Shown in pieces: positions 35,905 to 55,618 of a stretch of DNA of 64,000 nt. The position numbers and the translations under genes were made by a program. Position 1 is the first letter of the stretch. Each line of letters opens with the position of its first letter. The notes under the pieces are model-generated. The model had not been told where the DNA came from. It searched no databases and saw only the letters and a program-made list of their open reading frames with translations. This stretch comes from Escherichia coli (GTDB lineage Bacteria; Pseudomonadota; Gammaproteobacteria; Enterobacterales; Enterobacteriaceae): the NCBI RefSeq assembly GCF_044647545.1, contig NZ_CP172818.1. One strand, written 5' to 3'.

Positions 35905-36254
35905 AATCATTTGTACTTTGTATTAATGAGGGATGAAATGTTATATAATATACCTTGTCGAATTTATATCCTTTCCACTCTGTCATTATGCATTTCTGGG
36001 ATAGTTTCTACTGCAACCGCAACTTCTTCAGAAACAAAAATCAGCAACGAAGAGACGCTCGTCGTGACCACGAATCGTTCGGCAAGCAACCTTTGGGAAA
36101 GCCCGGCGACTATACAGGTTATTGACCAACAAACATTGCAGAACTCCACCAATGCCTCCATAGCCGATAATTTGCAGGACATCCCCGGAGTAGAGATAAC
36201 AGACAACTCCTTGGCAGGCCGTAAACAAATCCGCATTCGTGGCTGGATTTGCCC

Positions 36255-37160
36255 CTATATTTCCAGACATCTGTTATCACTTAACCCATTACAAGCCCGC
36301 TGCCGCAGATATTCCCGTGGCGAGCGATAACCCAGCGCACTATGCGGATGCCATTCGTTATAATGCTCGAACGCCTCTGCAAGGTTCTTTGCTGCCGTTA
36401 ACCCGTCTGGTTTGGGCATGATACTGATGTAGTCACGCTTTATCGTTTTCACGAAGCTCTCTGCTATTCCGTTACTCTCCGGACTCCGCACCGCCGTGTT
36501 CTTCGGTTCAAGTCCCAACATCCGGGCGAACTGGCGTGTTTCATTAGCCCGGTAGCATGAACCATTATCCGTCAGCCACTCCACTGGAGACGACGGAAGA
36601 TCGTTGCCGAAGCGGCGTTCCACCGCTCCCAGCATGACGTCCTGTACTGTTTCACTGTTGAAGCCGCCGGTAGTGACCGCCCAGTGCAGTGCCTCACGAT
36701 CACAGCAGTCCAGCGCGAACGTGACACGCAGTCTCTCTCCGTTATCACAGCAGAACTCGAACCCGTCAGAGCACCATCGCTGATTGCTTTCTTTCACGGC
36801 CACTCTGCCTGTATGTGCCCGTTTCGATGGCGGTACAGCAGGTTTTCGCTCAAGCAACAGCGCATTCTGGCGCATGATCCGGTAAACACGTTTGGCATTG
36901 ATCGCAGGCATACCATCAAGTTCTGCCTGTCTGCGAAGCAGCGCCCATACCCGACGATAACCATACGTTGGCAGCTCTCCGATAACATGGTGTATACGGA
37001 GAAGCACATCCGTATCATCAGTGTGACGACTGCGGCGGCCATCCATCCAGTCATCGGTTCGTCTGAGAATGACGTGCAACTGCGCACGCGACACCCGGAG
37101 ACAACGGCTGACTAAGCTTACTCCCCATCCCCGGGCAATAAGGGCGCGTGCGCTATCCAC
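36255..37160 (-). CDS. insD: IS2 transposase OrfB (DDE integrase domain)
   Basis: 301-aa [33 protein letters not shown]... matches InsD. Confidence 0.9.
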
Positions 37161-37482
37161 TTTTTTGCCCGTCCATATTCAACGGCTTCTTTGAGGAGTT
37201 CATTTTCCATCGTTTTCTTGCCGAGCAGGCGCTGGAGTTCTTTAATCTGCTTCATGGCAGCAGCAAGTTCAGAGGCAGGAACGACCTGTTCTCCGCGGCG
37301 ACAGCAGTAAGACTTCCCCCCTGGATTGCTTGCGCCAGAGAAATAACTGGCTGGCTGCTACACCGTGTTGCCGGGCAACAAGGGAGGCCGTCATTCCCGG
37401 TTCAAAGCTCTGCTGAACAATAGCGCTCTTTTCCTGTGTAGTACGCCGTCTGCGTTTCTCCGGTCCCTAAGACATCAATCAT
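37118..37482 (-). pseudogene. insC: IS2 OrfA (InsC), out of frame in this copy
   Basis: ATG...TAA span is 365 nt (not a multiple of 3); MIDVLG then frame lost; later frames still encode [12 protein letters not shown]...LFLWRKQ and ...[45 protein letters not shown]. Confidence 0.65.
37160..37167 (-). promoter_or_regulatory. IS2 programmed -1 frameshift slippery site (A6G)
   Basis: Minus strand CAAAAAAG at the insC/insD overlap. Confidence 0.6.
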
Positions 37483-37804
37483 CTGTTCTCCAATGACTAA
37501 GTCAAAAACTAGAATATTAAGACTATCACTTATTTAAGTGATATTGGTTGTCTGGAGATTCTGGGGGCTAGTCTAGTGGCGAAGCATCCTCCCGTGTTTT
37601 AATTCTCATTGATGGTCAGGAGGTAACTTATCAGCGCGCCGGAGATAATTATGGTGTGGGACTGTTGATAGATGAGTCTGCGCTGGAGCGTGTTGAGATA
37701 GTGAAAGGTCCATATTCCGTACTGTACGGTTCACAGGCAATTGGCGGTATTGTTAACTTCATCACCAAAAAGGGTGAATCTCCAGACTCCCTATATCACT
37801 TAAA

Positions 37805-38515
37805 TTGATACAACTTTTTAGAGTAGTCATTAGTGAACAGATAATTGATAACTCAGAACCAGTAAAATGCAAAAGACGCACCACGCTGGGAAAATCGCTG
37901 CTATTCAGCAGAGTTTTGTATCGAGAATGGTGGCCAGCCACTTATTGCTCTCGCGTAAGCGGGTACCGTGACATTCTGCCCGAACTGGACCTGGTACTGT
38001 GGCTGATTAAAGCCGATGACCGTGCCCTGTCTGTGGATGAGTATTTCTGGCGACACATCCTGCACCGGGGACATCAGCGGGTACTGTTTGTGGTGATGCA
38101 GGCCGATAAAACGGAGCCCTGCCATGAATGGGATATGGCCGGTATTCAGCCTTCTCCCGCACAGGCACAGAACATTCGCGAAAAAACGGAGGCGGTATTC
38201 CGTCTGTTCCGGCCCGTACATCGGGTTGTTGCCGTATCGGCCCGCACCGGCTGGGAACTGGATACGCTGGTCAGTGCGCTCATGACAGCACTTCCCGACC
38301 ATGCCGCCAGTCCCCTGATGACCCGCCTGCAGGACGAGCTGCGCACGGAATCTGTCCGCGCTCAGGCCCGTGAACAGTTTACCGGTGCGGTGGACCGGAT
38401 ATTTGACACGGCGGAGAGCGCCTGTATTGCCTCTGTTGCACGCACGGTTCTGCGTGCCGTCCGTGACTCGGTGGTCTCTGTTGCCCGCGCGGTATGGAAC
38501 TGGATTTTCTTCTGA
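37805..38515 (+). pseudogene. yeeP: Prophage GTPase-like protein, N-terminally truncated (no P-loop)
   Basis: 236-aa ORF matches the C-terminal part of YeeP-type GTP-binding proteins; no GxxxxGK[ST] motif present. Confidence 0.55.
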
Positions 38516-38609
38516 ACCGGTGGTGACTGATGCCCTCCCTGACTCTGAGTCTGCTCACAAAAGCACTGTTTTCGTTACTGTCTCTCTTGTCCGTGCAATA
38601 GCTCAATAA

Positions 38610-38818
38610 TAGAATAAAACGATCAATATCTATTTTATCGATCGTTTATATCGATCGATAAGCTAATAATAACCTTTGTCAGTAACATGCACAGATACGT
38701 ACAGAAAGACATTCAGGGAACAACAGAACCACAATTCAGAAACTCCCACAGCCGGACCTCCGGCACTGTAACCCTTTACCTGCCGGTATCCACGTTTGTG
38801 GGTACCGGCTTTTTTATT
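38610..38818 (+). ncRNA. isrC: Small RNA IsrC region (5' leader upstream of flu); boundaries approximate
   Basis: Position between yeeP and flu; ends at intrinsic terminator CCGGTATCCAC-gttt-GTGGGTACCGG plus T6 (38780..38818). Confidence 0.4.
38621..38656 (+). promoter_or_regulatory. Three GATC sites (Dam/OxyR phase-variation switch of Ag43)
   Basis: GATC at 38621, 38640 and 38653 within aacGATCaatatctattttatcGATCgtttatatcGATCgataag, about 200 bp upstream of flu. Confidence 0.75.
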
Positions 38819-38842
38819 CACCCTCAATCTAAGGAAAAGCTG

Positions 38843-41800
38843 ATGAAACGACATCTGAATACCTGCTACAGGCTGGTATGGAATCACATGACGGGCGCTT
38901 TCGTGGTTGCCTCCGAACTGGCCCGCGCACGGGGTAAACGTGGCGGTGTGGCGGTTGCACTGTCTCTTGCCGCAGTCACGTCACTCCCGGTGCTGGCTGC
39001 TGACATCGTTGTGCACCCGGGAGAAACCGTGAACGGCGGAACACTGGCAAATCATGACAACCAGATTGTCTTCGGTACGACCAACGGAATGACCATCAGT
39101 ACCGGGCTGGAGTATGGGCCGGATAACGAGGCCAATACCGGCGGGCAATGGGTACAGGATGGCGGAACAGCCAACAAAACGACTGTCACCAGTGGTGGTC
39201 TTCAGAGAGTGAACCCCGGTGGAAGTGTCTCAGACACGGTTATCAGTGCCGGAGGCGGACAGAGCCTTCAGGGACGGGCTGTGAACACCACGCTGAATGG
39301 TGGCGAACAGTGGATGCATGAGGGGGCGATAGCCACAGGAACCGTCATTAATGATAAGGGCTGGCAGGTCGTCAAGCCCGGTACAGTGGCAACGGATACC
39401 GTTGTTAATACCGGGGCGGAAGGGGGACCGGATGCAGAAAACGGTGATACCGGGCAGTTTGTTCGCGGGGATGCCGTACGCACAACCATCAATAAAAACG
39501 GTCGCCAGATTGTGAGAGCTGAAGGAACGGCAAATACCACTGTGGTTTATGCCGGCGGCGACCAGACTGTACATGGTCACGCACTGGATACCACGCTGAA
39601 TGGGGGATACCAGTATGTGCACAACGGCGGTACAGCGTCTGACACTGTTGTGAACAGTGACGGCTGGCAGATTGTCAAAAACGGGGGTGTGGCCGGGAAT
39701 ACCACCGTTAATCAGAAGGGCAGACTGCAGGTGGACGCCGGTGGTACAGCCACGAATGTCACCCTGAAGCAGGGCGGCGCACTGGTTACCAGTACGGCTG
39801 CAACCGTTACCGGCATAAACCGCCTGGGAGCATTCTCTGTTGTGGAGGGTAAAGCTGATAATGTCGTACTGGAAAATGGCGGACGCCTGGATGTGCTGAC
39901 CGGACACACAGCCACTAATACCCGCGTGGATGATGGCGGAACGCTGGATGTCCGCAACGGTGGCACCGCCACCACCGTATCCATGGGAAATGGCGGTGTA
40001 CTGCTGGCCGATTCCGGTGCCGCTGTCAGTGGTACCCGGAGCGACGGAAAGGCATTCAGTATCGGAGGCGGTCAGGCGGATGCCCTGATGCTGGAAAAAG
40101 GCAGTTCATTCACGCTGAACGCCGGTGATACGGCCACGGATACCACGGTAAATGGCGGACTGTTCACCGCCAGGGGCGGCACACTGGCGGGCACCACCAC
40201 GCTGAATAACGGCGCCATACTTACCCTTTCCGGGAAGACGGTGAACAACGATACCCTGACCATCCGTGAAGGCGATGCACTCCTGCAGGGAGGCTCTCTC
40301 ACCGGTAACGGCAGCGTGGAAAAATCAGGAAGTGGCACACTCACTGTCAGCAACACCACACTCACCCAGAAAGCCGTCAACCTGAATGAAGGCACGCTGA
40401 CGCTGAACGACAGTACCGTCACCACGGATGTCATTGCTCAGCGCGGTACAGCCCTGAAGCTGACCGGCAGCACTGTGCTGAACGGTGCCATTGACCCCAC
40501 GAATGTCACTCTCGCCTCCGGTGCCACCTGGAATATCCCCGATAACGCCACGGTGCAGTCGGTGGTGGATGACCTCAGCCATGCCGGACAGATTCATTTC
40601 ACCTCCACCCGCACAGGGAAGTTCGTACCGGCAACCCTGAAAGTGAAAAACCTGAACGGACAGAATGGCACCATCAGCCTGCGTGTACGCCCGGATATGG
40701 CACAGAACAATGCTGACAGACTGGTCATTGACGGCGGCAGGGCAACCGGAAAAACCATCCTGAACCTGGTGAACGCCGGCAACAGTGCGTCGGGGCTGGC
40801 GACCAGCGGTAAGGGTATTCAGGTGGTGGAAGCCATTAACGGTGCCACCACGGAGGAAGGGGCCTTTGTCCAGGGGAACAGGCTGCAGGCCGGTGCCTTT
40901 AACTACTCCCTCAACCGGGACAGTGATGAGAGCTGGTATCTGCGCAGTGAAAATGCTTATCGTGCAGAAGTCCCCCTGTATGCCTCCATGCTGACACAGG
41001 CAATGGACTATGACCGGATTGTGGCAGGCTCCCGCAGCCATCAGACCGGTGTAAATGGTGAAAACAACAGCGTCCGTCTCAGCATTCAGGGCGGTCATCT
41101 CGGTCACGATAACAATGGCGGTATTGCCCGTGGGGCCACGCCGGAAAGCAGCGGCAGCTATGGATTCGTCCGTCTGGAGGGTGACCTGATGAGAACAGAG
41201 GTTGCCGGTATGTCTGTGACCGCGGGGGTATATGGTGCTGCTGGCCATTCTTCCGTTGATGTTAAGGATGATGACGGCTCCCGTGCCGGCACGGTCCGGG
41301 ATGATGCCGGCAGCCTGGGCGGATACCTGAATCTGGTACACACGTCCTCCGGCCTGTGGGCTGACATTGTGGCACAGGGAACCCGCCACAGCATGAAAGC
41401 GTCATCGGACAATAACGACTTCCGCGCCCGGGGCTGGGGCTGGCTGGGCTCACTGGAAACCGGTCTGCCCTTCAGTATCACTGACAACCTGATGCTGGAG
41501 CCACAACTGCAGTATACCTGGCAGGGACTTTCCCTGGATGACGGTAAGGACAACGCCGGTTATGTGAAGTTCGGGCATGGCAGTGCACAACATGTGCGTG
41601 CCGGTTTCCGTCTGGGCAGCCACAACGATATGACCTTTGGCGAAGGCACCTCATCCCGTGCCCCCCTGCGTGACAGTGCAAAACACAGTGTGAGTGAATT
41701 ACCGGTGAACTGGTGGGTACAGCCTTCTGTTATCCGCACCTTCAGCTCCCGGGGAGATATGCGTGTGGGGACTTCCACTGCAGGCAGCGGGATGACGTTC

Positions 41801-41962
41801 TCTCCCTCACAGAATGGCACATCACTGGACCTGCAGGCCGGACTGGAAGCCCGTGTCCGGGAAAATATCACCCTGGGCGTTCAGGCCGGTTATGCCCACA
41901 GCGTCAGCGGCAGCAGCGCTGAAGGGTATAACGGTCAGGCCACACTGAATGTGACCTTCTGA
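38843..41962 (+). CDS. flu: Antigen 43 self-associating autotransporter adhesin
   Basis: 1039-aa ORF from MKRHLNTCYRLVWNHMTGAFVVASELARARG (extended signal peptide), beta-helical passenger repeats, C-terminal beta-barrel ending ...QATLNVTF. Confidence 0.9.
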   Translation: MKRHLNTCYRLVWNHMTGAFVVASELARARGKRGGVAVALSLAAVTSLPVLAADIVVHPGETVNGGTLANHDNQIVFGTTNGMTISTGLEYGPDNEANTGGQWVQDGGTANKTTVTSGGLQRVNPGGSVSDTVISAGGGQSLQGRAVNTTLNGGEQWMHEGAIATGTVINDKGWQVVKPGTVATDTVVNTGAEGGPDAENGDTGQFVRGDAVRTTINKNGRQIVRAEGTANTTVVYAGGDQTVHGHALDTTLNGGYQYVHNGGTASDTVVNSDGWQIVKNGGVAGNTTVNQKGRLQVDAGGTATNVTLKQGGALVTSTAATVTGINRLGAFSVVEGKADNVVLENGGRLDVLTGHTATNTRVDDGGTLDVRNGGTATTVSMGNGGVLLADSGAAVSGTRSDGKAFSIGGGQADALMLEKGSSFTLNAGDTATDTTVNGGLFTARGGTLAGTTTLNNGAILTLSGKTVNNDTLTIREGDALLQGGSLTGNGSVEKSGSGTLTVSNTTLTQKAVNLNEGTLTLNDSTVTTDVIAQRGTALKLTGSTVLNGAIDPTNVTLASGATWNIPDNATVQSVVDDLSHAGQIHFTSTRTGKFVPATLKVKNLNGQNGTISLRVRPDMAQNNADRLVIDGGRATGKTILNLVNAGNSASGLATSGKGIQVVEAINGATTEEGAFVQGNRLQAGAFNYSLNRDSDESWYLRSENAYRAEVPLYASMLTQAMDYDRIVAGSRSHQTGVNGENNSVRLSIQGGHLGHDNNGGIARGATPESSGSYGFVRLEGDLMRTEVAGMSVTAGVYGAAGHSSVDVKDDDGSRAGTVRDDAGSLGGYLNLVHTSSGLWADIVAQGTRHSMKASSDNNDFRARGWGWLGSLETGLPFSITDNLMLEPQLQYTWQGLSLDDGKDNAGYVKFGHGSAQHVRAGFRLGSHNDMTFGEGTSSRAPLRDSAKHSVSELPVNWWVQPSVIRTFSSRGDMRVGTSTAGSGMTFSPSQNGTSLDLQAGLEARVRENITLGVQAGYAHSVSGSSAEGYNGQATLNVTF

Positions 41963-42076
41963 CAGAACCATCGCCTCTCTGTGGTCCCGGTCATCATGAC
42001 CGGGACCCGGACCGGCGCAACGGATCTTCAACGCCACATTCGCTGGCATTAACAATAACATGATATTCATCACGGA

Positions 42077-43615
42077 GTGACTATGTTACAGATAGTCGGC
42101 GCGCTGATCCTGCTGATCGCAGGATTTGCCATTCTTCGCCTTTTGTTCAGAGCATTAATCAGCACGGCTTCTGCGCTGGCAGGGCTCATATTGCTGTGTC
42201 TGTTCGGCCCGGCCTTACTGGCTGGCTATATCACCGAACGCATAACCCGGTTGTTCCATATTCGCTGGCTGGCAGGCGTATTTCTGACGATTGCCGGAAT
42301 GATCATCAGCTTCATGTGGGGACTTGATGGTAAACATATCGCGCTGGAGGCTCACACCTTTGACTCTGTGAAATTTATTCTGACCACCGCTCTCGCCGGT
42401 GGTCTGCTGGCTGTTCCCCTGCAGATCAAAAACATTCAGCAGAACGGGATCACACCAGAAGATATCAGCAAGGAAATTAACGGGTATTACTGCTGTTTTT
42501 ATACTGCCTTTTTCCTTATGGCGTGTTCTGCATGCGCACCATTGATCGCGTTACAGTACGATATTTCACCGTCACTGATGTGGTGGGGCGGGTTGTTGTA
42601 CTGGCTGGCTGCATTAGTGACGCTGCTATGGGCGGCCAGCCAGATCCAGGCGCTGAAAAAACTGACCTGTGCCATCAGCCAGACACTGGAAGAACAACCG
42701 GTGCTCAACAGTAAATCGTGGCTGACCAGTTTGCAAAACGATTACAGCCTTCCTGACTCACTGACGGAGCGCATCTGGCTGACGCTCATTTCTCAACGGA
42801 TTTCCCGGGGAGAGCTGAGGGAATTTGAACTGGCAGACGGAAACTGGTTACTGAACAATGCCTGGTATGAAAGAAACATGGCAGGGTTTAACGAACAGTT
42901 GAAAGAGAACCTGTCATTCACACCTGATGAACTGAAAACGCTCTTCCGGAACCGCCTGAATTTATCACCGGAAGCGAATGACGATTTTCTCGATCGTTGC
43001 CTGGACGGCGGTGACTGGTATCCCTTTTCAGAAGGTCGCCGTTTTGTATCATTCCATCACGTGGATGAGCTTCGTATCTGTGCCTCCTGCGGGCTGACAG
43101 AAGTACATCATGCCCCGGAAAATCATAAGCCGGATCCGGAATGGTACTGCTCCTCTCTTTGTCGCGAAACAGAAACACTGTGTCAGGAAATTTATGAACG
43201 CCCTTACAACAGCTTTATTTCCGATGCAACGGCGAATGGTCTGATTCTCATGAAACTGCCGGAAACCTGGAGTACAAATGAGAAAATGTTTGCTTCCGGA
43301 GGGCAGGGACATGGGTTTGCCGCTGAACGGGGAAACCATATTGTCGACAGAGTCCGTCTGAAAAACGCACGGATCCTCGGTGATAATAATGCCAGAAATG
43401 GAGCAGACAGACTGGTCAGCGGAACAGAAATCCAGACGAAATATTGTTCAACTGCAGCCCGTAGCGTCGGTGCGGCATTCGACGGACAAAACGGACAGTA
43501 TCGTTACATGGGAAATAATGGCCCCATGCAACTGGAAGTCCCCCGTGATCAGTATGCCGGCGCTGTTGAAACCATGAGGAATAAGATCCGCGAAGGTAAA
43601 GTAGAGGAGCGATGA
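42077..43615 (+). CDS. yeeR: Prophage inner-membrane protein of unknown function with Cys-rich C-terminal region
   Basis: 512-aa ORF; N-terminal TM helices; CASCG...CSSLC motif. Confidence 0.75.
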   Translation: MTMLQIVGALILLIAGFAILRLLFRALISTASALAGLILLCLFGPALLAGYITERITRLFHIRWLAGVFLTIAGMIISFMWGLDGKHIALEAHTFDSVKFILTTALAGGLLAVPLQIKNIQQNGITPEDISKEINGYYCCFYTAFFLMACSACAPLIALQYDISPSLMWWGGLLYWLAALVTLLWAASQIQALKKLTCAISQTLEEQPVLNSKSWLTSLQNDYSLPDSLTERIWLTLISQRISRGELREFELADGNWLLNNAWYERNMAGFNEQLKENLSFTPDELKTLFRNRLNLSPEANDDFLDRCLDGGDWYPFSEGRRFVSFHHVDELRICASCGLTEVHHAPENHKPDPEWYCSSLCRETETLCQEIYERPYNSFISDATANGLILMKLPETWSTNEKMFASGGQGHGFAAERGNHIVDRVRLKNARILGDNNARNGADRLVSGTEIQTKYCSTAARSVGAAFDGQNGQYRYMGNNGPMQLEVPRDQYAGAVETMRNKIREGKVEER

Positions 43616-44058
43616 CGCCCGGCGAGCGCAGTCTCATTCAGCGGGCCCTGAAAACCCTGGACCGCCATCTTCATGAACCCGGCGTGCCCTTCACCTCCAC
43701 CCGTGCGGCACGGGAATGGCTGATTCTGAACATGGCGGGACTGGAGCGTGAAGAATTCCGGGTGCTGTATCTGAATAACCAGAATCAGCTGATTGCCGGT
43801 GAAACCCTCTTCACCGGCACCATCAACCGCACGGAAGTCCATCCCCGGGAAGTGATTAAACGCGCCCTGTATCACAATGCCGCTGCCGTGGTGCTGGCAC
43901 ACAATCACCCGTCCGGTGAAGTCACACCCAGCAAGGCAGACTGCCTTATCACGGAACGTCTGGTACAGGCACTGGGCCTGGTGGATATCCGGGTGCCGGA
44001 CCATCTGATAGTCGGTGGCAACCAGGTTTTCTCCTTTGCCGAACATGGTCTGCTTTAA
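43612..44058 (+). CDS. yeeS: RadC-like JAMM-domain protein
   Basis: 148-aa ORF with HNHPSGE JAMM motif. Confidence 0.8.
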   Translation: MTPGERSLIQRALKTLDRHLHEPGVPFTSTRAAREWLILNMAGLEREEFRVLYLNNQNQLIAGETLFTGTINRTEVHPREVIKRALYHNAAAVVLAHNHPSGEVTPSKADCLITERLVQALGLVDIRVPDHLIVGGNQVFSFAEHGLL

Positions 44059-44120
44059 CCCGTCACAACCACATCACACCTGTTTTCACTTTTATCTTCT
44101 GTCTTCAGAGGTATCCCACT

Positions 44121-44342
44121 ATGAAAATTATCACCCGTGGCGAAGCCATGCGTATTCACCGTCAGCATCCGGCATCCCGTCTTTTTCCGTTCTGTACCGG
44201 CAAATACCGCTGGCACGGCAGTGCTGAAGCTTATACCGGTCGTGAAGTGCAGGATATTCCCGGTGTGCTGGCCGTGTTTGCCGAACGCCGTAAGGACAGT
44301 TTTGGTCCGTATGTCCGGCTGATGAGCGTCACCCTGAACTGA
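44121..44342 (+). CDS. yeeT: DUF987-family small protein
   Basis: 73-aa ORF MKIITRGEAMRIHRQHPASRLFPFCTGKYRWHGSAEAYTGREV... Confidence 0.75.
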   Translation: MKIITRGEAMRIHRQHPASRLFPFCTGKYRWHGSAEAYTGREVQDIPGVLAVFAERRKDSFGPYVRLMSVTLN

Positions 44343-44416
44343 AAGTGGGAATTCTGCTCATCAGAATTATCACCACTACCGAACCATTCTTACCGATTTT
44401 CTGTAAGGATTTTATC

Positions 44417-44785
44417 GTGTCAGACACACTCTCCGGGACAACACATCCCGACGACAATCACGACCACCCCTGGTGGGGACTACCCTGCACCGTGACGCCC
44501 TGTTTCGGCGCCCGTCTGGTGCAGGAGGGTAACCGCTTGCATTACCTTGCCGACCGCGCCGGTAACAGAGGCCTGTTCAGCGATGCAGATGCGTACCCCC
44601 TGGACCAGGCCTTTCCGCTGCTGATGAAACAACTGGAACTCATGCTCACCAGCGGTGAACTGAATCCCCGCCATCAGCATACCGTCACACTGTATGCGAA
44701 GGGGCTGACCTGTGAAGCTGACACCCTCGGCAGCTGTGGTTACGTTTATCTGGCTGTTTATCCGACGCCCGAAACGAAAAATTAA
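44417..44785 (+). CDS. cbeA: Type IV antitoxin (cytoskeleton bundling-enhancing factor)
   Basis: GTG start; VSDTLSGTTHPDDNHDHPWWGLPCTVTPCFGARLVQEGNRLHYLADRAG... matches CbeA/YeeU. Confidence 0.8.
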   Translation: MSDTLSGTTHPDDNHDHPWWGLPCTVTPCFGARLVQEGNRLHYLADRAGNRGLFSDADAYPLDQAFPLLMKQLELMLTSGELNPRHQHTVTLYAKGLTCEADTLGSCGYVYLAVYPTPETKN

Positions 44786-44873
44786 CCCACCGGAATAACC
44801 TTCTGCTCCGGCCTGGTGCTTTCACCACGCCACTTTTCCATTTTTATCTCTGCATATCAGGAAAATCTTCAGT

Positions 44874-45246
44874 ATGAAAACATTACCCGTATTACCCGGG
44901 CAGGCGGCGTTCTCGCCCGTCTCCTGTTACCATCTGGCAGATACTGCTCACCCGATTACTGGACCAGCACTACAGCCTTACGCTGAATGACACACCGTTC
45001 GCCGATGAACGCGTGATTGAGCAGCATATTGAGGCAGGCATTTCACTGTGTGATGCAGTGAACTTTCTCGTGGAAAAATACGTACTGGTACAACTGACCA
45101 GCCGGGATTCAGCGCCGGAACCCGTCTCAGTTAATCAACAGCATTGATATCCTCCGGGCTCGCCGGGCAACCGGTCTGATGACCCGCAGCAACTACAGAA
45201 CGGTAAATAACATTACCCTGGGTAAGTATCCGGAGGCGAAAAATGA
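44874..45246 (+). pseudogene. cbtA: Type IV toxin CbtA (YeeV), frameshifted at least twice
   Basis: [12 protein letters not shown] then frame lost; second frame [54 protein letters not shown]; third frame DILRARRATGLMTR.NYRTVNNITLGKYPEAK runs into yeeW. Confidence 0.7.
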
Positions 45247-45439
45247 AATGACGCTGGAAGCCGACAGCGTTAACGTACAGGCGCTGGATATGGGGCACAT
45301 TGTCGTTGACGTCGATGGTGTTAATCTCACTGAACTGATTAATAAAGCCGCTGAAAACGGTTATTCACTCCGCGTGGTGGATGACCGTGACACTACCGAA
45401 ACACCGGCAACTTCTGCCAGCCCTCATCAGTTGCCGTAA
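45247..45439 (+). CDS. yeeW: Small prophage protein
   Basis: MTLEADSVNVQALDMGHIVVDVDGVNLTELINKAAENGYSLRVVDDRD...; in this sequence its frame is continuous with the last cbtA fragment. Confidence 0.6.
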
Positions 45440-45479
45440 GACAATACAGTGATACAGAGTATAATGCCATTAGCCACAG

Positions 45480-45492
45480 AAAAAAAAAAAAA
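45480..45492. repeat. A13 homopolymer
   Basis: 13 consecutive A downstream of yeeW. Confidence 0.9.
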
Positions 45493-45605
45493 CAGCACTG
45501 TTGTCCTGTATTAAACAGGCAAGAGAAGATATCCATACCCTGCGCCATCTGCAGCTTCTGCACCAGAACCGGTGAATCTCACTCAACAGACTTCATTTCC
45601 CCTGA

Positions 45606-45637
45606 CGCCAGCCTGAATACAGCTGGCGTTTTCATTT
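45606..45637 (+). terminator. Intrinsic-terminator-like hairpin
   Basis: CGCCAGC-ctgaataca-GCTGGCG followed by TTTTCATTT. Confidence 0.45.
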
Positions 45638-45733
45638 ATATACAGAAAGGAAAACCGATAATAATGGAATGGACGCCCCGACCATGAAGCAACGGTAGGA
45701 TATTACTGATAAACCTTCCAGTGGAGGTGCGTT

Positions 45734-45813
45734 ATGGCCGTTTTAACGATTAGCATTGACCTGACAAAAAATGAATTCCAAATCCACGGTCTGGGTAGGA
45801 ACAGAAAAATCTA
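45734..45813 (+). pseudogene. N-terminal remnant of an IS110-family-like transposase (26 codons then stop)
   Basis: MAVLTISIDLTKNEFQIHGLGRNRKI resembles the xGIDxxKxxFQ.HG start of IS110-family transposases. Confidence 0.35.
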
Positions 45814-45889
45814 AGCTCAGAAAACGGATTAAAGTAAGCGTCAACGGAGCACCATATTGACGCTTATTTATTGGTGAGAACTACGTTCC

Positions 45890-46246
45890 ATGGCAGGAGT
45901 TCGTCAACACGGTTGGAGGGCCATTCCGGCAGTATGCTCAGAATATGGCGCAGATACGCTTCCGGATCGATACCGTTCAGACGGCAGGTGCCTGCTTTTC
46001 CGGCAACAAGCAGGAATCTCAGCGCTGAAGCAGGAATTAGAGGTAAAAACGCCCTACCGGGCCATGAATCACCCGGTCATTGGAGTAGTAACCAAAGCAG
46101 ATTTAGCCAGCATGGAACAAATATCTTTGGTGAAATGTTGGTTACGGGAAGCTGGAGCGCACAACGTGTTAGTAACCAGTGCGGTTAATAACAATGGAGT
46201 TACAGAACTTTTTGCCTTGCTGCATACAGAAGAAGGCTGCCGCTAA
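45890..46246 (+). pseudogene. yoeF: EutP/PduV-family GTPase C-terminal fragment
   Basis: 118-aa ORF ending ...HPVIGVVTKADLASMEQISLVKCWLREAGAHNVLVTSAVNNNGVTELFALL; lacks N-terminal P-loop. Confidence 0.55.
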
Positions 46247-46346
46247 TTTCGATAGGTTCTCAGATGAGAATGATGACGGTGATACACAGATAAGAATCAA
46301 TGAGCAATGAGGGTTGCCGGGCAACCCTCATTGAATAAAACAGGAA

Positions 46347-46676
46347 TTACTTCGCTTCGCCGTTTTTCATTTCGCCCATAGCTTTCAGCTTTTTGGAGAT
46401 ATCGCGGCGTTCTTTGGAGAGCTCGGCATTTTTGATGATGTAATCGTCAACGCGATCTTCATAGTCACCTTTCATGCTGGCGATGATGCCCTGGATTGCT
46501 TCAACGCTCATCCCTGGCTTGATGTAATCGCTCAGGTTGTCCAGCAACAGGACGCGCTTCTGGTTGTCACGGATCTTTTTCTCAACGTCCTGAATTTCAC
46601 GTTGCAGTTTGTTCTTACGACGGAACAGACGAACAAATTCCAGTACGTCCTGGAATGAAGGCTTGGTAGTTTCCAT
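46347..46676 (-). CDS. yeeX: DUF496-family protein
   Basis: Internal start [42 protein letters not shown]... Confidence 0.8.
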
Positions 46677-46847
46677 TTTTATACCCCTGATAATGTGAGA
46701 GTCGGATTCGTTTAAGCAACCGCTATTCGATAGGGCCAACATTACTCATAGCTGCCGCAGATGACAATGCTTTTATCCCTTTTCACTATCATACCCTTTA
46801 TCCTTGCTGAATCGAAGCAGCAGCAAGATGATTCTGAAGTTCAGGAA

Positions 46848-47906
46848 TTATTTGCGCAAGGCCCGGCAAATCAGATTCGATAGCAACTCAAGCTGATGCG
46901 CCGTTTCCATGTTCAGCCACACATAACCATAGATTGGTGTTTCCACAACCTTCAGGTCATGGTGGTTATTAAGCAACAGACGCAGCTCTTCCACAGCATC
47001 GTTCAATTTTTCCGTATTGGCAAAAACCGGCTGCGGATTACCTTCGTACAGCGCATGAACAAGGCTCAGCAGTATTTGCTGCATCATGTGCTGGGTATCA
47101 CGAAGTTTTTGCGCGTTCAATAACACGAAATGGCTGGGGCGCGTGGCCCAGTATGCATTGATTTGCAACTCCAGCATACAAACCAGATTGCGGTTAATGG
47201 TCTGGATACCTTCATATATCGATTTTGGAATACGGGTTTCTTTGCTGGCGGGCGCAATCAGCCCACGCATTTTCACGGCATCGGTCAGCAGTTTTTGTAG
47301 ATGGCTTTCCAGACGTGGGCGTTCGAGTAAGTTCGGTGAGAATGCAGATTGATAGACCCGATTATACTCGGTCAGACTTTTCGCCAGTTGAATGCGCCAG
47401 TGGATGAACGCCCGTTGTGGCCAGATACCGGTAAACAACATTGCCAGTAAAGAGCCGAGGATCACATCGCCGCTTCGCCATAACGCCGTATCAATTTCAC
47501 CTGTCGGGGAACCCACAACAATTGCCAGCGTCACCCCAATCAATAATCCTTGATACGGTTTCTTGCCCAGCGCCAGCCAACCGCAAAGAAACATCGCCGC
47601 CGCGCACCAGACTAACATCAGCGGTAACGAAATTAACTCCAGTTGCAGAGCGATAAGACCTAAAATCGAACCCAACACCGTACCGCCAATACGTTCGAAG
47701 GCACGAGGGACAACGTTCCCCCAGAACGAGATTGGCCCCATAATCACCACCATGGTGACCAGCGGCCAGGTGCTTTCCGGGATAGTAAACAGGCGGATAA
47801 TGAGAAAAGTGAGCAGGAATGCCAGCGCGACCCGAGTACCATGCACAATGCGGTAATGGCGGTATACCCGGATTTCAAACGGGCTTAATGACTTATCGGC
47901 ACGCAC
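46848..47906 (-). CDS. yeeA: FUSC-like inner-membrane protein
   Basis: 352-aa polytopic ORF matching YeeA. Confidence 0.8.
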   Translation of the reverse strand: MRADKSLSPFEIRVYRHYRIVHGTRVALAFLLTFLIIRLFTIPESTWPLVTMVVIMGPISFWGNVVPRAFERIGGTVLGSILGLIALQLELISLPLMLVWCAAAMFLCGWLALGKKPYQGLLIGVTLAIVVGSPTGEIDTALWRSGDVILGSLLAMLFTGIWPQRAFIHWRIQLAKSLTEYNRVYQSAFSPNLLERPRLESHLQKLLTDAVKMRGLIAPASKETRIPKSIYEGIQTINRNLVCMLELQINAYWATRPSHFVLLNAQKLRDTQHMMQQILLSLVHALYEGNPQPVFANTEKLNDAVEELRLLLNNHHDLKVVETPIYGYVWLNMETAHQLELLSNLICRALRK

Positions 47907-48103
47907 GCAGAAACTCCGTAATGAAGATTAAAAGCGCTCATAACACATCTGTCGGCCAGAAGGCGCGCCTCTGAGTTATCCGACGGACATACCGGGAACA
48001 GTGTAATTTCCCGGCAGGAGCGAAAAATTTGAAAGGCGCATCTTACTCTTTTCGCTTTCAAAAAAAGAGTGGTCTTCGCGTCAACACACCGCCCTGAGAT
48101 GAA

Positions 48104-48577
48104 TTAGTGATGTTTTGGCTGCACCGCAACATACATTTCGATATCCCAGTACCCATCTTCCGCGCCATTGTTCAAGTAAACCTCGAAGCAGGGCTTTGGT
48201 AACATTTCATAGGCACTGTCCTGCAAGAGGCTATTAAAGAACTGATACCAGGGTTTAGCAAAATCATCACCGACTACACGAGCCACCGCCACCGCATACT
48301 GACCACCTGAAATTTCTGTCAGAATGACGCCCTCACTGTTTTCGGGGAGCGTAAAGTTATTCGGCACCGTCACGACGGTGTCGCAGCGTAATTTTTCGGC
48401 GGGTGTTTCATCTGGATTGTCGTAATAGACAGCAACCCACTCCTTCGGCACAATATTTTTGCTATCTATCCACATCATCAACTGCTCAAAGCCTTTCTTT
48501 ACCGTCTGTTCCCACGGGCCAACGAGATGGAAACCTGCAACGGTACGTTTATCTTCCTGCTTAATCTCGTAGTTCAT
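48104..48577 (-). CDS. sbmC: DNA gyrase inhibitor (SOS-induced)
   Basis: 157-aa [50 protein letters not shown]...; LexA box upstream. Confidence 0.85.
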
Positions 48578-48591
48578 GACGCCCCCATTAA

Positions 48592-48611
48592 TACTGTTTT
48601 TATATACAGTA
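48592..48611. promoter_or_regulatory. LexA (SOS) box upstream of sbmC
   Basis: TACTGTTTTTATATACAGTA is a perfect palindromic CTGT-N8-ACAG LexA box. Confidence 0.75.
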
Positions 48612-48695
48612 TAGTTGCAATATTAAAACCACAAGGAATGAGTGTTGATTATGCGAGCAGACTCGCACTCCTGCCAGTCTGCTGCAAAAGAAAGG

Positions 48696-49868
48696 TCAGG
48701 CCTTATGGTGGAAATAATCACTCAGCCGGGAAAACATGCTGCCTTCCCCGACAGATTCCAGGGTAACCAGCGGCCAGTGCGCCACCTGTTTATCACGGTC
48801 GTAAAGTTCAATTTCCCCTACCCGCTGATGGGCGCTAATTGGCGCGGTGAGTTCTTTACCATCAAGGGTATATTTGGCTTTGATATGTGGAATTTCGGCT
48901 TTCGGTAGCACCATCCAGAACTCTTGTTCCGTTCCCAGGGCGATATTTTCTTTATCGCCATACCAGATGCGTTCCGTACCAACCTTTTTCCCACGGTGCA
49001 AAATTTGCACCGTAGTAAAGTTTTGTTGACCCCAACGCAGTAATTTTCTTGCCTCTTCCTCACGACCTTTTGCGCTGTCAGCCCCCATTACCACTGCAAT
49101 GAGACGACGCTGCCCATCTACAGCCGAAGCAATGAGATTAAACCCGGCACCAGAAGTATGACCCGTTTTCAGGCCGTCAACATTCATGGTTTTATCCCAC
49201 AATAACCCGTTACGGTTTTGCTGGGTGATACCGTTCCAGGTGAGGCTTTTCTCACTGTACATATGATAAAACTCGGGCTCGCCGTGGATGATAGCGCGAG
49301 AAAGCACAGCTAAATCATAAGCCGAGCTATGCTGGCCAGGTGCATCCAGACCATGCACTGTTTCAAAATGCGTATCCTTGAGATGCAGCTTCTCGGCATA
49401 GTTGTTCATCATTTCAACAAACTGCCGTTGCCCACCGGCAATATAGTCAGCCAGTGCAACACAAGCGTCATTTCCGGAATCCACAATTAAACCACGGCTT
49501 AAATCACGTACCGATACGCGATCGCCCTCTTTCAAAAACATCAGTGAAGAACCGACAAACACCGGATTATCTTTCGCCCACGCATCACGCCCCACGGTGA
49601 CAATATCGTCTGGCGTAATGCGATGACTATCGATAGCACGATCCACGACATAGCCCGTCATCAGCTTTGTCAGGCTGGCGGGATTGCGCTGTTGATGCTC
49701 ATTACCCGCGGTGAGAATCTGACCGGTGGTGTAATCCATCAATACCCAGGACCCGGCATGAATCTCTGGAGGCTGAGGTGAAAAAGGAATGTTTTCCGCC
49801 GCAAAACCAGACGATAAATTAAAAACGAACAAAGAAGCAGCAATAATAAGACGGCGTTTCAACAGCAA
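48696..49868 (-). CDS. dacD: D-alanyl-D-alanine carboxypeptidase (PBP6b)
   Basis: ORF with signal peptide, SxxK (SLTK), SGN and KTG motifs. Confidence 0.85.
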   Translation of the reverse strand: MLLKRRLIIAASLFVFNLSSGFAAENIPFSPQPPEIHAGSWVLMDYTTGQILTAGNEHQQRNPASLTKLMTGYVVDRAIDSHRITPDDIVTVGRDAWAKDNPVFVGSSLMFLKEGDRVSVRDLSRGLIVDSGNDACVALADYIAGGQRQFVEMMNNYAEKLHLKDTHFETVHGLDAPGQHSSAYDLAVLSRAIIHGEPEFYHMYSEKSLTWNGITQQNRNGLLWDKTMNVDGLKTGHTSGAGFNLIASAVDGQRRLIAVVMGADSAKGREEEARKLLRWGQQNFTTVQILHRGKKVGTERIWYGDKENIALGTEQEFWMVLPKAEIPHIKAKYTLDGKELTAPISAHQRVGEIELYDRDKQVAHWPLVTLESVGEGSMFSRLSDYFHHKA

Positions 49869-50070
49869 ACCCTCAGGTGTTTCAAATAGCTGTTCTTTTT
49901 ACGGAAATACTTATGAACTGGCTGGAATAAAGTGCAAGAAAATGTGACTACTATCTCATTTTTATCTGACATGATCTGTTGCCACTCGCTGCCAAATTGT
50001 CGCGCTAAAGCTGATTAGCACGGTGATATTTGATACTCTGGCAGACAGCAGAAATAACGGATTTAACCTA

Positions 50071-51498
50071 ATGATGAATGACGGTAAGCAACAACCTACC
50101 TTTTTCTTTCACGATTACGAAACCTTTGGAACGCACCCCGCGTTAGATCGCCCTGCACAGTTCGCAGCCATTCGCACTGATAACGAATTCAATGTCATCG
50201 GCGAACCCGAAGTCTTTTACTGCAAGCCCGCGGATGACTATTTACCCCAGCCTGGAGCAGTATTAATTACCGGTATTACCCCGCAGGAAGCACGGGCGAA
50301 AGGAGAAAACGAAGCCGCGTTTGCCGCCCGTATTCACTCGCTTTTTACCGTACCGAAGACCTGTATTCTGGGCTACAACAATGTGCGTTTCGACGATGAA
50401 GTCACACGCAACGTTTTTTATCGTAATTTCTACGATCCTTACGCCTGGAGCTGGCAGCATGATAACTCGCGCTGGGATTTACTGGATGTTATGCGTGCCT
50501 GTTATGCCCTGCGCCCGGAAGGAATAAACTGGCCTGAAAATGATGACGGTCTACCGAGCTTTCGCCTTGAGCATTTAACCAAAGCGAATGGTATTGAACA
50601 TAGCAACGCCCACGATGCGATGGCTGATGTGTACGCCACTATTGCGATGGCGAAACTGGTAAAAACGCGTCAGCCACGCCTGTTTGATTATCTCTTTACC
50701 CATCGTAATAAACACAAACTGATGGCGTTGATTGATGTTCCGCAGATGAAACCCCTGGTTCACGTTTCCGGAATGTTTGGGGCATGGCGTGGCAATACCA
50801 GCTGGGTGGCACCGCTGGCGTGGCATCCTGAAAATCGCAATGCCGTAATTATGGTGGATTTGGCAGGAGACATTTCACCATTACTGGAGCTGGATAGCGA
50901 CACATTGCGCGAGCGTTTATATACCGCAAAAGCCGATCTTGGCGATAACGCCGCCGTTCCGGTTAAGCTGGTGCATATCAATAAATGTCCGGTACTGGCC
51001 CAGGCGAATACGCTACGCCCGGAAGACGCTGAGCGTTTAGGGATTGCTCGTCAACACTGCCTGGATAACCTGAAAGTGTTGCGCGAAAACCCGCAAGTAC
51101 GCGACAAAGTTGTGGCAATTTTTGCAGAAGCTGAACCGTTTACACCATCAGATAATGTAGATGCACAGCTTTATAATGGCTTTTTTAGCGACGCCGATCG
51201 TGCAGCAATGAAAATCGTGCTGGAGACTGAACCGCGTAATTTACCGGCTCTGGATATCACCTTTGTTGATAAGCGTATCGAGAAACTCCTGTTCAACTAC
51301 CGCGCCCGCAACTTCCCCGGCACGTTAGATGACAACGAGCAGCAACGCTGGCTTGAGCACCGCCGCCAGGTCTTCACACCCGAGTTTTTACAAGGCTATG
51401 CAGAAGAGATTCAGATGCTGGCGCAGCTGTATGCCGACGATAAAGAAAAAGTGGCGCTGTTAAAAGCGCTTTGGCAGTACGCGGAAGAGATTGTCTAA
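50071..51498 (+). CDS. sbcB: Exodeoxyribonuclease I
   Basis: Internal start MMNDGKQQPTFFFHDYETFG... (DEDDh exonuclease); track ORF extended 16 aa upstream. Confidence 0.85.
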   Translation: MMNDGKQQPTFFFHDYETFGTHPALDRPAQFAAIRTDNEFNVIGEPEVFYCKPADDYLPQPGAVLITGITPQEARAKGENEAAFAARIHSLFTVPKTCILGYNNVRFDDEVTRNVFYRNFYDPYAWSWQHDNSRWDLLDVMRACYALRPEGINWPENDDGLPSFRLEHLTKANGIEHSNAHDAMADVYATIAMAKLVKTRQPRLFDYLFTHRNKHKLMALIDVPQMKPLVHVSGMFGAWRGNTSWVAPLAWHPENRNAVIMVDLAGDISPLLELDSDTLRERLYTAKADLGDNAAVPVKLVHINKCPVLAQANTLRPEDAERLGIARQHCLDNLKVLRENPQVRDKVVAIFAEAEPFTPSDNVDAQLYNGFFSDADRAAMKIVLETEPRNLPALDITFVDKRIEKLLFNYRARNFPGTLDDNEQQRWLEHRRQVFTPEFLQGYAEEIQMLAQLYADDKEKVALLKALWQYAEEIV

Positions 51499-51540
51499 TG
51501 TGAAGCCTCCGCCGCTGGTACGGCGGAGGACAATTTTGAG

Positions 51541-51768
51541 TCAGGCTTTTTGAACGGTGATGCTCCACGCTGCATCGCCAATCTGCTGATAATCGGTGAT
51601 GGCATGTCCTTCTTCTGCCGCCCACTGTGGGATTGCTTCAGTTGCCTGGGTGCAATCAAACTCAATTACCAACTCATCGCCGCTGGCCATTTCTGCCAGT
51701 GCTGCTTTTGCTTCTATGAGTGGAAACGGACAGACCTGCGTCACCACATCCAGCTTTTTAATCGCCAT
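51541..51768 (-). CDS. yeeD: TusA-like sulfurtransferase
   Basis: 75-aa ORF with CPFP motif (VCPFPLIEAK). Confidence 0.8.
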   Translation of the reverse strand: MAIKKLDVVTQVCPFPLIEAKAALAEMASGDELVIEFDCTQATEAIPQWAAEEGHAITDYQQIGDAAWSITVQKA

Positions 51769-51781
51769 CTTTACACCTTAC

Positions 51782-52840
51782 TTAATTTGCCGCAGCAGTT
51801 GCCAGTCGCGCCTTACGCTGCGGTCGAACATACACAAGCCAGGACGCAGTCCAGACTCCGAGAATCATAAATACAAGGCCAATCCAGCCCTGCCAGGTCA
51901 TCATTGCAGTCATGACCAGTCCATTACCGATAGAGCAACCACCTGCAATGCTGGCACCGAAGCCCATCAGTACACCACCTAACCCGCTACGTAATGTTGT
52001 TTGTGCATCAGCAGCGCGAACGCGGAACTCACGGCTCGCTTTGGCGGCAATAAATGACCCCACGAAGCTCCCTAACACCAGGAAAACGCCCCAGTTAATG
52101 TATTTCACGTCACCCGCGACCAGAAATTGCAGAATATTGGCCGTTGGGGAAGTGATGCCTAACCCAAACATACGTCCGGTTGCTTCACTCAGGGGCCAGG
52201 CTAAAAGCGCAATCAAACCGATGAGTACAGCTGTGACAAAGGGATGCCAGCGTTTTTCAAACAGAATATGAGCGATCCCGGTTCGGCGCGGCGGTAAGGT
52301 CGCGACTTTGAGTTTTGGCTTCTTCAACTCTTTCATCACCACCCAGAGCGTTATCACCAGCAAAACGGCAACCAACGGCCACACAGACAAATTAAAAGTA
52401 TCAGCAATAGAGTTATGTTCAGTAGTGTAGTGCTGCAAGGTTTGATTTAAACCACTGGCGTGTGGAGAACGCATCACCGCACTCATCACCATATAAGTGA
52501 AAAGCGCGATCCAACTGCCGATCAATCCCTCACCCGCGCGATACCAGGTCCCGGTGGCACATCCACCCGCCAGAACAATTCCCAGCCCGAAAAGATACCC
52601 ACCTATAACAGTACCAAGCCACGGGAACGCCCCGGCTTCGTAAGTCAGTAGGCCCGCCTGAATTAACGCAAAAACCCCCACGCTTTGTACCGAAATTGCA
52701 ATCAGCAAGGCGTAAAACATGCGATTATTTTTCGCGACATACATATCGCGAAAACCACCTGTCAGGCAAAAACGCCCACGCTGCATGACAAATCCCAGCA
52801 GAGCACCACAAATTAGCCCGCTTAATATCATTGAAAACAT
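51782..52840 (-). CDS. yeeE: YeeE/YedE-family thiosulfate-transporter-like membrane protein
   Basis: 352-aa polytopic ORF immediately upstream of yeeD (operon). Confidence 0.8.
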   Translation of the reverse strand: MFSMILSGLICGALLGFVMQRGRFCLTGGFRDMYVAKNNRMFYALLIAISVQSVGVFALIQAGLLTYEAGAFPWLGTVIGGYLFGLGIVLAGGCATGTWYRAGEGLIGSWIALFTYMVMSAVMRSPHASGLNQTLQHYTTEHNSIADTFNLSVWPLVAVLLVITLWVVMKELKKPKLKVATLPPRRTGIAHILFEKRWHPFVTAVLIGLIALLAWPLSEATGRMFGLGITSPTANILQFLVAGDVKYINWGVFLVLGSFVGSFIAAKASREFRVRAADAQTTLRSGLGGVLMGFGASIAGGCSIGNGLVMTAMMTWQGWIGLVFMILGVWTASWLVYVRPQRKARLATAAAN

Positions 52841-52963
52841 AAATTAATTAACCAGATGAATGTTAATAAGGAAATTATTCATGACTGGTGGAATGCAGAC
52901 CAATAACCAAATTCTCTAAATTAGAACAAATGGTTATTAATGAGGATTTCGATAAAAAAGAAT

Positions 52964-52998
52964 AAAAAAACCGGAGCCAAATATTCATTCGACTCCGG
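52964..52998 (-). terminator. Rho-independent terminator after plaP
   Basis: CCGGAG...CTCCGG hairpin with U-run on minus strand. Confidence 0.55.
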
Positions 52999-53018
52999 TT
53001 GATTATTAGAAAAGATGA

Positions 53019-54377
53019 TTATGCTACGTCTTCGTACTGCGGAACCGGGTTACGGAAGCTCTTGGTTACGCATGCCAGGTAAATCAGACCGATAGCAGCC
53101 CAGATCAGACCCAGAACCATTGAGCTTTCTTCCAGGTTAACCCACAGCGCACCAACGGTCAGCGCACCACACATCGGCAGGAACAGATACTGGAAGTGAT
53201 CTTTCAGCGTCTTGTTACGCTTCTCACGGATCCAGAACTGCGAGATGACCGACAGGTTAACGAAGGTGAACGCCACCAACGCACCAAAGTTAATCAGCGC
53301 CGTTGCCATTACCAGGTCAAAGTTGATTGCCAGCAGGGCAATCGCGCCAACCAGGATGATATTCATCGCCGGAGTACGCCATTTCGGGTGTACATAACCG
53401 AAGAAGCTTTTCGGGAACACGCCGTCACGACCCATTACGTACATCAGACGCGCAACGCCTGCGTGCGCCGCCATACCGGACGCCAGTACGGTAATGGTGG
53501 AGAAGATCAGCGCGCCAACCTGGAACGCTTTACCCGCAACGTACAGCATGATTTCAGGCTGTGACGCATCCGGATCTTTAAAGCGAGAGATATCCGGGAA
53601 GTACAGCTGCAGGAAGTAAGTTGCAAAGATGAAGATCATGCCGCCAATCAGCGCGGTCAGGAAAATCGCACGCGGGATCACGCGCTCTGCATCTTTGGTT
53701 TCTTCCGACAGGTTGCTGATGCCGTCAAAGCCGGTAAAGGAGAAGCACAGGATTGTCGCCCCGGTAATCATCGGGATAACATGCGCATCGCCAGACCAGA
53801 ACGGACGAGTGCTCGCCAGCGTACCCGCTCCTTCACCTTCAAATACGCCATAAACAACCATGCCCAGGATCACCGCGATCAGCACTACCTGCAACACGAC
53901 GATTACAGTGTTGAAGTTCGCTACGGATTTCAGACTACGCAGGTTAAAGGCGGTCATAAAGGCCACCAGCGCCACCACAAACATCCACGATGGAATGGAA
54001 GGCACCAGAGCTTCAAAATAGATTTTCGCCAGCAGAATGTTGATCATCGGCGCGAACAGATAGTCGAGCAGAGAAGACCAACCCACCATAAAGCCGACAG
54101 TCGGGCTAATGGATTTCTGGGCGTAAGTGTATGCAGAGCCAGCAGAAGGATAGCGGCGGACCAGCTTCCCGTAGCTCAGAGCCGTAAACAGGATCGCAAT
54201 CAATGCGAACGCATAGGCTGTCGGCACATGACCATCCGTGAGGCCTGAAACGATACCAAAAGTATCAAACAGCGTCATCGGCTGCATATAGGCAAGACCC
54301 ATCATTACAACCGGAACTAACGTAAGCGTTTTACGCAATTCCACGCGAGAGGTGTTTGGAGTAACGTTATGCGACAT
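53019..54377 (-). CDS. plaP: Putrescine importer (APC family)
   Basis: Start [20 protein letters not shown]...; 12-TM amino acid/polyamine permease. Confidence 0.85.
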
Positions 54378-54524
54378 GGTCATTCTCCTTTACGGTGATA
54401 ACCGTCGCGTAAGCAAAAAATTGCCCCATTTTTTTGGATTCCTCAGCGACAACAACTGTCGATTTTTAGTAAATATCTATCCGGTACGAAGCCCGGCCTC
54501 TTGGTATGAATGATTGGTTTGAAG

Positions 54525-54561
54525 CAAAAAATAACCGACGCTGATGAAACGTCGGTTTTTA
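54525..54561. terminator. Bidirectional terminator-like hairpin between plaP and yeeY
   Basis: A-run, ACCGACG-ctgatgaa-CGTCGGT, T-run. Confidence 0.5.
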
Positions 54562-54643
54562 GTCATTTTTTGACAGCGGCGCATTGTGCCTAAATGGGGG
54601 GGAAATGACAAGAGAATGAGAGGCTTGTCATAATAATTTTTCT

Positions 54644-55573: not shown

Positions 55574-55618
55574 ACACGCCCCCTTGCAGTGCATGCGGCG
55601 TCCTGCTGGCGTGATCGT

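Follow-up and report, generated by a model that had tools for sequence, protein, structure and literature searches.

The segment of this Escherichia coli chromosome that carries the cbeA-cbtA-yeeW toxin-antitoxin module (roughly 43.6-45.66 kb of the window, by which we mean the whole 64-kb stretch of DNA that was analysed) is very likely a consensus built from the reads of two paralogous CP4-type modules and not one real allele. In the deposited sequence an open antitoxin gene, cbeA (yeeU), stands beside a toxin gene, cbtA (yeeV), that is broken by several frameshifts. That these lesions exist in the deposited sequence is confirmed; their presence in the organism is a separate question, and the answer appears to differ from lesion to lesion, one being a common natural deletion and the others falling where the two modules differ in length or are densely mismatched.

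The window is E. coli chromosomal DNA that is collinear with K-12 between yedA and the his operon, and the locus lies in the right end of the CP4-44 island, where it corresponds to the cbeA-cbtA-yeeW module. A sequence-only reading that preceded this work had placed it in a CP4-44-like island, and the gene order bears this out: flu (38687-41962), yeeR (42077-43615), yeeS (43612-44058) and yeeT (44121-44342, plus strand) lie upstream, followed by cbeA, the cbtA remnant and yeeW and then by tmaR, yeeA, sbmC, dacD and sbcB, again collinear with K-12. According to the ORF list yeeT (DUF987, 73 aa) is intact, and its exact protein occurs on at least 1000 contigs. Immediately around the module the sequence is unremarkable, with zero differences from SMS-3-5 at 43641-44118 and at 45642-50000 and three SNPs in the approximately 10.8 kb from 45700 to 56519. 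These flanks are also essentially identical to those of E. coli MS6198, and on the left side no difference from K-12 was found over 41304-43600. We therefore rejected generally poor sequence quality as an explanation, since unique DNA is near-identical to SMS-3-5 and no damage is seen in sbcB, dacD, plaP or the his genes of the window.

A number of other features of the window were recorded along the way. Position 34656 lacks the IS5 copy (IS5H/insH6) by which CP4-44 is interrupted in K-12; otherwise the left and middle parts of the island are 99.3-100% identical to K-12, compared with only 95-99% for the chromosomal backbone. A yeeP-like GTPase segment (37805-38526) matches the GTPase gene of the SMS-3-5 island, which is intact there, at 99.8% identity, compared with about 20 differences from yeeP of K-12. 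As this segment is SMS-like and not K-12-like, the left part of the island is a patchwork of K-12-type and SMS-type sequence with long tracts, which looks natural. In the yeeZ-hisL intergenic region (56519-56718) about 60 nt of SMS-3-5 are swapped for a shorter unrelated stretch, with a 20-nt insertion, agtcaaaaccacctaacgcc, at 56699-56718 and a few 1-nt indels relative to SMS-3-5; this is probably REP-element or intergenic variation. The 3' part of a yeeJ-like adhesin gene (18936-20630) is only 93% identical to K-12 and is followed by about 60 nt without a K-12 counterpart, including a C10 homopolymer (20621-20630).

The antitoxin gene was correctly described earlier as full-length from a GTG at 44417. 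This GTG is homologous to the annotated K-12 start, and from it the gene runs for 122 codons without indels to a stop at 44785 (44417-44785, plus strand). The product matches Pfam PF06154 with E = 5.5e-53 over model positions 1-100 of 101 and is classed in the source as a YeeU family antitoxin, and its gene directly precedes one of the cbtA family in a CP4-type island, with the order and spacing of K-12 CP4-44. The position from which the feature had been drawn, 44345, is not the start of cbeA; it is a mere in-frame upstream GTG of a 146-aa ORF. Antitoxins of this kind are of type IV and counter CbtA by bundling MreB and FtsZ filaments. Among approximately 15 billion proteins the exact CbeA of this locus (WP_400165261.1) occurs on one contig only, of 4,499,902 bp, and so does the exact YeeW (WP_400165328.1; DUF5983, 63 aa), which is encoded at 45248-45439 (plus strand) with the ATG at 45248 as its true start.

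The cbtA remnant (44874-45241, plus strand) begins with an ATG at 44874 and, read from its alignment to K-12 together with three-frame translation, consists of four pieces spread over three frames: two in frame 0 (44874-44908 and 45091-45123), one in frame +1 (44909-45090) and one in frame +2 (45124-45241). Much of this had been noticed from the letters alone. The frame is indeed lost near codon 12, through a 2-bp deletion (CA, codon 12/13) at 44908-44909, and CbtA sequence does resume in a second frame, frame +1, which reads SRPSPV... from 44909 to 45090. The later shift is also present, but it comprises two further 1-bp deletions and not one: delG at 45090-45091 and the loss of a C at 45124 (45123-45125), with the consequence that a 33-nt piece is put back in frame 0 before the frame +2 tail begins. 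Finally, the third frame runs into yeeW as described, because a 4-nt insertion (45242-45248) destroys the TGA stop of cbtA and fuses the CbtA tail to YeeW in an 86-aa ORF (45179-45439). When the four pieces are stitched together they give a full-length match to PF06755 (2.1e-54, model positions 1-112 of 112). As deposited, however, an uninterrupted cbtA ORF of about 124 codons is absent and the ORF that starts at the ATG stops after 38 codons; the codons for R15 and F65 are in frame +1 only. CbtA stops division and elongation via FtsZ (F65) and MreB (R15) (PMC5624674).

Relative to SMS-3-5, the densely chimeric zone (44119-45641, plus strand) contains about 90 substitutions and six novel indel events, and the substitutions and indels stand against both K-12 and SMS-3-5. 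We searched 5,426 complete E. coli genomes for a natural counterpart of the interval and found that the best of 13,570 homologous places reaches 93.1% identity. Among more than 10,000 copies, the best match to a 521-bp sub-segment reaches 96.0% and that to a 281-bp sub-segment only 92.6%, and on this basis simple gene conversion from a single known paralogue was rejected. The paralogous modules of K-12 are YkfI/YafW and YpjF/YfjZ (PMC5371832). Aligning the locus to its paralogues, as had been suggested, put K-12 ykfI and ypjF at only about 70% identity, which also speaks against such conversion. The 2-bp lesion in cbtA is equally without a counterpart: a 40-mer carrying it on a pure class-A background (see below) had no match in the 5,426 complete genomes, and the deleted 30-mer had none in metagenome contigs, 28 of which contained the wild-type 32-mer used as a control.

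Two classes of sequence account for the composition of the segment. Class A is the resident CP4-44 allele, which is SMS-3-5-like, and class C is a second CP4-type island module (loci L011-L016), defined from the DNA of those members of a 90%-identity CbeA cluster that share the window's unusual residues. The class-C module encodes RadC, a DUF987 protein, a 37-aa ORF, a CbeA of 122 aa, an intact CbtA of 125 aa and a DUF5983 protein, and it is the source of every non-A state in the window; no class-C module was found within the 64 kb. It also differs from class A in having extra segments, namely 51 and 36 nt before cbeA, 12 nt at the cbtA/yeeW junction and about 86 nt after yeeW, of which only stubs are present in the window. 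The 37-aa ORF, which in L011-L016 lies between yeeT and cbeA, overlaps the yeeT stop (ATGA) and falls in the 51 + 36 nt missing from CP4-44; it had no Pfam match.

By BLAST of the window and of SMS-3-5 against L016, L011 and L014, with per-site tables, the block of A-C homology was delimited to 43606-45662 (plus strand). Class-C states in the window begin at 43610 and end at 45641, and are thus within this block. From cbeA to yeeW, A and C are 85.4% identical to each other, while the window's identity is 93.3% to A and 92.5% to C, which places it midway between its parents. Between 44100 and 45660 there are 205 informative substitution sites, 117 of A type and 88 of C type, and reading along them one switches parent 75 times, the median length of a tract being 2.5 bp. 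The ratio of A to C is 73:73 in the cbeA-yeeW core, with 55 switches, and the best pair of parents among all those tried for the core was SMS-3-5 and L016. Private substitutions are essentially lacking, and their number falls to zero once L011 is admitted as a parent. Given that there are no private substitutions and that the segment sits exactly at the midpoint between A and C, we rejected the possibility that it represents an independent, anciently diverged class of allele. The mixing is uneven along the block, since the switches are fewer than expected for a random ordering (75 versus 100 +/- 7), that is, somewhat clustered, and since yeeS (43641-44021) is uniformly A-type at its approximately seven informative sites. 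The encoded proteins reflect this composition. CbeA is an A/C hybrid in which S6, H10, H17, N50, P60, E99 and T120 are of the class-C type, and residues of CbtA such as VTIWQ..LLTRLL are of the class-C type as well.

The positions of the novel indels point in the same direction. There are six of these (+AA at 44343, -1 at 44392, -2 at 44908, -1 at 45124, +4 at 45242-48 and +A10 at 45480-89), and all six are at A/C length differences or at places with at least 5 mismatches per 12 nt. Since 15% of the region consists of positions of this type, the probability of this arising by chance is approximately 1e-5. None of the six takes either parental form. Both the -2 and the 45124 deletions are in dense clusters of A/C mismatches, and several of the remaining indels have the appearance of stubs, with AA in place of the 51 nt of class C, four of its 12 nt, and A10 in place of its approximately 86 nt. 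At the cbtA/yeeW junction, where class C has the 12 extra nt, class A reads GCGAAATGA followed by TGACA, class C reads GCGAAACAATGAAACTGGCCCTGACG and the window reads GCGAAAAATGAAATGACG. The A13 run at 45480-45492 (plus strand) corresponds to A3 in class A and coincides with the approximately 86-nt insertion of class C. Indels of this kind are therefore not peculiar to cbtA, as they also occur in spacers and at the A13 run. In the yeeT-cbeA spacer (44343-44392, plus strand) AA is added at 44343-44, where class C has 51 more nt, and one nt is lost at 44392. A hairpin loop in this spacer (44357-61) has class-C sequence on class-A stems; we considered a small inversion (GATGAGC to GCTCATC) and rejected it, as the loop is plain class-C sequence. 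By comparison, cbeA is free of indels and its A and C versions are equal in length, and it is only because of this equality that the chimeric gene stays in frame. We also considered hypermutation by a reverse transcriptase or a DGR-like system leaving a poly(A) tail, in view of the all-A insertions and the A13 run. This was rejected because the substitutions show a transition bias (60:27), lack specificity for adenine and all correspond to parental states, and because the A13 run is at the site of the 86-nt insertion of class C.

The module is not the only scrambled repeat in the window. A copy of IS2 (36239-37569, minus strand) is identical to K-12 except at its left end, in insC (37259-37569, minus strand), where comparison with K-12 IS2F shows 15 substitutions and indels at 7 positions and where insC is broken up into two ORFs, of 45 and 41 aa. 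In a search of complete genomes the best of 23,291 IS2 places matched this left end at 95.8%. Its variable sites blend K-12-type and 1919D3-type alleles and are accompanied by novel indels, one of which is a deletion that coincides precisely with a site of G/T variation.

We consider it very likely that these features are a consequence of read mixing during assembly or polishing. Parent A would be the resident SMS-3-5-like yeeS-yeeT-cbeA-cbtA-yeeW module, already carrying delG, and parent C an L016-like module with an intact 125-aa cbtA, situated elsewhere in the genome or missing from the assembly. If reads of both were piled onto one locus, either through a collapsed repeat or through mis-polishing, the consensus would have taken the A or the C state at each substitution difference with a frequency close to 50:50, and alignment of the reads across length differences and dense mismatches would have produced small spurious indels; these would include the -2, -1 and +4 changes in cbtA, the +AA and -1 changes upstream of cbeA and the A13 run. 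The earlier suggestion that paralogous copies had confused the assembly is thereby favoured, by the per-site blend of A and C and by the placement of indels at A/C differences, with the cause itself being something that we infer, in contrast to the two-parent mosaic, the placement of the indels and the natural standing of delG, which are shown. Consistent with this idea, we found that: (i) the variants are all A or C; (ii) the novel indels are at A/C differences and (iii) IS2 is affected in the same window in which unique DNA is clean. The 50:50 blend, the lack of private changes, the stub-like indels, the confinement to the homology block, the occurrence of the sequence as a singleton and the scrambled IS2 together make up the signature of a mixed consensus. 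Points that weigh against this reading are the natural recombination of the family, the shortfall of switches relative to a random ordering and the uniformly A-type yeeS.

A second scenario is that the mosaic is real and that recombination or gene conversion in vivo, with patchy repair of heteroduplex, gave rise to a hybrid cbeA and a multiply frameshifted cbtA. We consider this unlikely, even though members of this family do swap tracts naturally (300709, VE-V11-M, L020 and L038 have class-C-type states in blocks) and although both the restriction of class-C states to the homology block and the partial clustering of switches would fit such exchange. In a panel of 17 sequences, natural alleles have class-C-type states in blocks at 0-34 of 152 sites, and the window is a clear outlier. 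VE-V11-M and two metagenome alleles have 23-31 A/C switches, which indicates that some mosaicism is real in the gene pool; the metagenome alleles (L020 and L038), which are among the three most mosaic, have 20-23 private substitutions and VE-V11-M only 3. The VE-V11-M allele (L005; NZ_AP027978.1, 1821859-1824543), at the same chromosomal locus, has 34 class-C states at the 152 sites and 31 switches, and its cbeA has a 1-bp deletion and is labelled 'frameshifted' in RefSeq; natural recombination may have given rise to this allele, or it may be affected, less severely, by the kind of consensus error proposed for the window. For the window, a real mosaic would need 55-75 switches in 1.1-1.5 kb, in tracts with a median of 2.5 bp and with an even 50:50 composition. 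MutHLS repair in E. coli is long-patch, so that neighbouring mismatches are co-corrected, recombination at approximately 15% divergence is strongly suppressed and unrepaired heteroduplex segregates into pure parental strands, and all three of these properties oppose a real mosaic. Moreover, recombination does not make non-parental lengths such as 4 of 12 nt or A10 for 86 nt. The lack of private substitutions and the SMS-3-5-identical flanks imply that the event would have been very recent, the sequence is a singleton, and IS2 in the same window is scrambled too. We accordingly regard as very unlikely a true cellular mosaic produced by very recent, extremely fine-grained exchange between CP4-type modules, in which the hybrid antitoxin stayed in frame and the toxin was destroyed. 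If it were true, it would point to an unusual short-patch or template-switching form of recombination acting on paralogous islands and IS copies.

The 45090-45091 deletion, delG, has to be set apart from the other lesions. It removes one G (GGTGC[G]TACC, at about codon 73), it is identical to the deletion in the class-A allele of SMS-3-5, and the same alignment column is gapped in SMS-3-5, 789 and 300709. Of 5,426 complete E. coli genomes, 1,487 (approximately 27%) have exactly this 81-bp delG allele, and in genomes with delG RefSeq labels cbtA as 'frameshifted' while cbeA next to it is intact. At CP4-44 a cbtA with a frameshift and an undamaged cbeA are thus commonly found together, a state that is already known and annotated; a search of the literature on cbtA pseudogenes brought up no work on natural frameshift alleles of the gene. 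The product of the SMS-3-5-type delG cbtA is garbled after about residue 73 and ends soon after, with R15 and F65 still included. In the window's cbtA, delG looks to be the only inherited lesion, the others not being genuine in appearance, and the true resident allele is most likely of the SMS-3-5 type, with cbeA (WP_001285585-type) and yeeW intact and cbtA altered by delG only. The conclusion of the sequence-only reading that the toxin has been inactivated is therefore upheld in part: the strain probably does combine a broken toxin with an intact antitoxin, by way of one common, inherited 1-bp deletion, but the existence of several independent frameshifts is unsupported, as those other than delG are at A/C differences.

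That delG is a genuine natural mutation could be taken to favor a history of stepwise decay, in which a diverged but genuine cbtA allele accumulated several independent frameshifts and left an orphan antitoxin. The lesions are present in the sequence, and loss of the toxin with retention of the antitoxin is a familiar fate of chromosomal toxin-antitoxin modules. Such decay would be expected to leave private substitutions, however, and there are essentially none, every variant being A or C. The extra indels coincide with structural differences between A and C to a degree not expected by chance, similar indels are found outside cbtA, and the 7% divergence of the interval is irreconcilable with flanks that are identical to SMS-3-5. 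We regard this history as highly improbable. Scarcely credible, in our view, is a mixed culture in which a second strain had the class-C module at the same site, since, while blending of two strains in the consensus would yield the same 50:50 mixture per site and the same aberrant indels, a second strain at approximately 50% should also have blended core SNPs, and the 10.8 kb downstream has three differences and no blending, with the anomalies being restricted to multi-copy DNA (the island module and IS2).

There is consequently little biological news in the locus, a frameshifted cbtA with an intact cbeA being already annotated in about 27% of complete genomes. Of more practical concern, the deposited 'intact' CbeA (WP_400165261.1), the YeeW protein (WP_400165328.1) and the 86-aa fusion ORF are probably chimeras present in no cell. 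Until checked against the reads, multi-copy island and IS sequences from this source are unfit for allele typing, for counts of pseudogenes or for studies of the evolution of toxin-antitoxin modules.

With regard to known systems, the CP4-44 module of K-12 shares with the window the GTG start and length of cbeA and the Pfam families PF06154 and PF06755, and differs from it in having an intact cbtA of 124 codons; in the window cbtA is interrupted, and divergence from K-12 across the interval amounts to 7%. Another likeness is found in the delG pseudogene allele at CP4-44 of SMS-3-5, MS6198, 789, 300709 and O157:H7 PV15-279, where yeeW is also intact. Genomes with this allele have the single lesion and no class-C states, to which the window adds about 90 substitutions and six indel events. 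Judged by sequence alone, the window also resembles the consensus of a collapsed or mis-polished repeat, in which alleles are mixed site by site, small indels appear at length differences and errors are found in multi-copy DNA while unique DNA is clean, as is the case here for two repeats in the same window.
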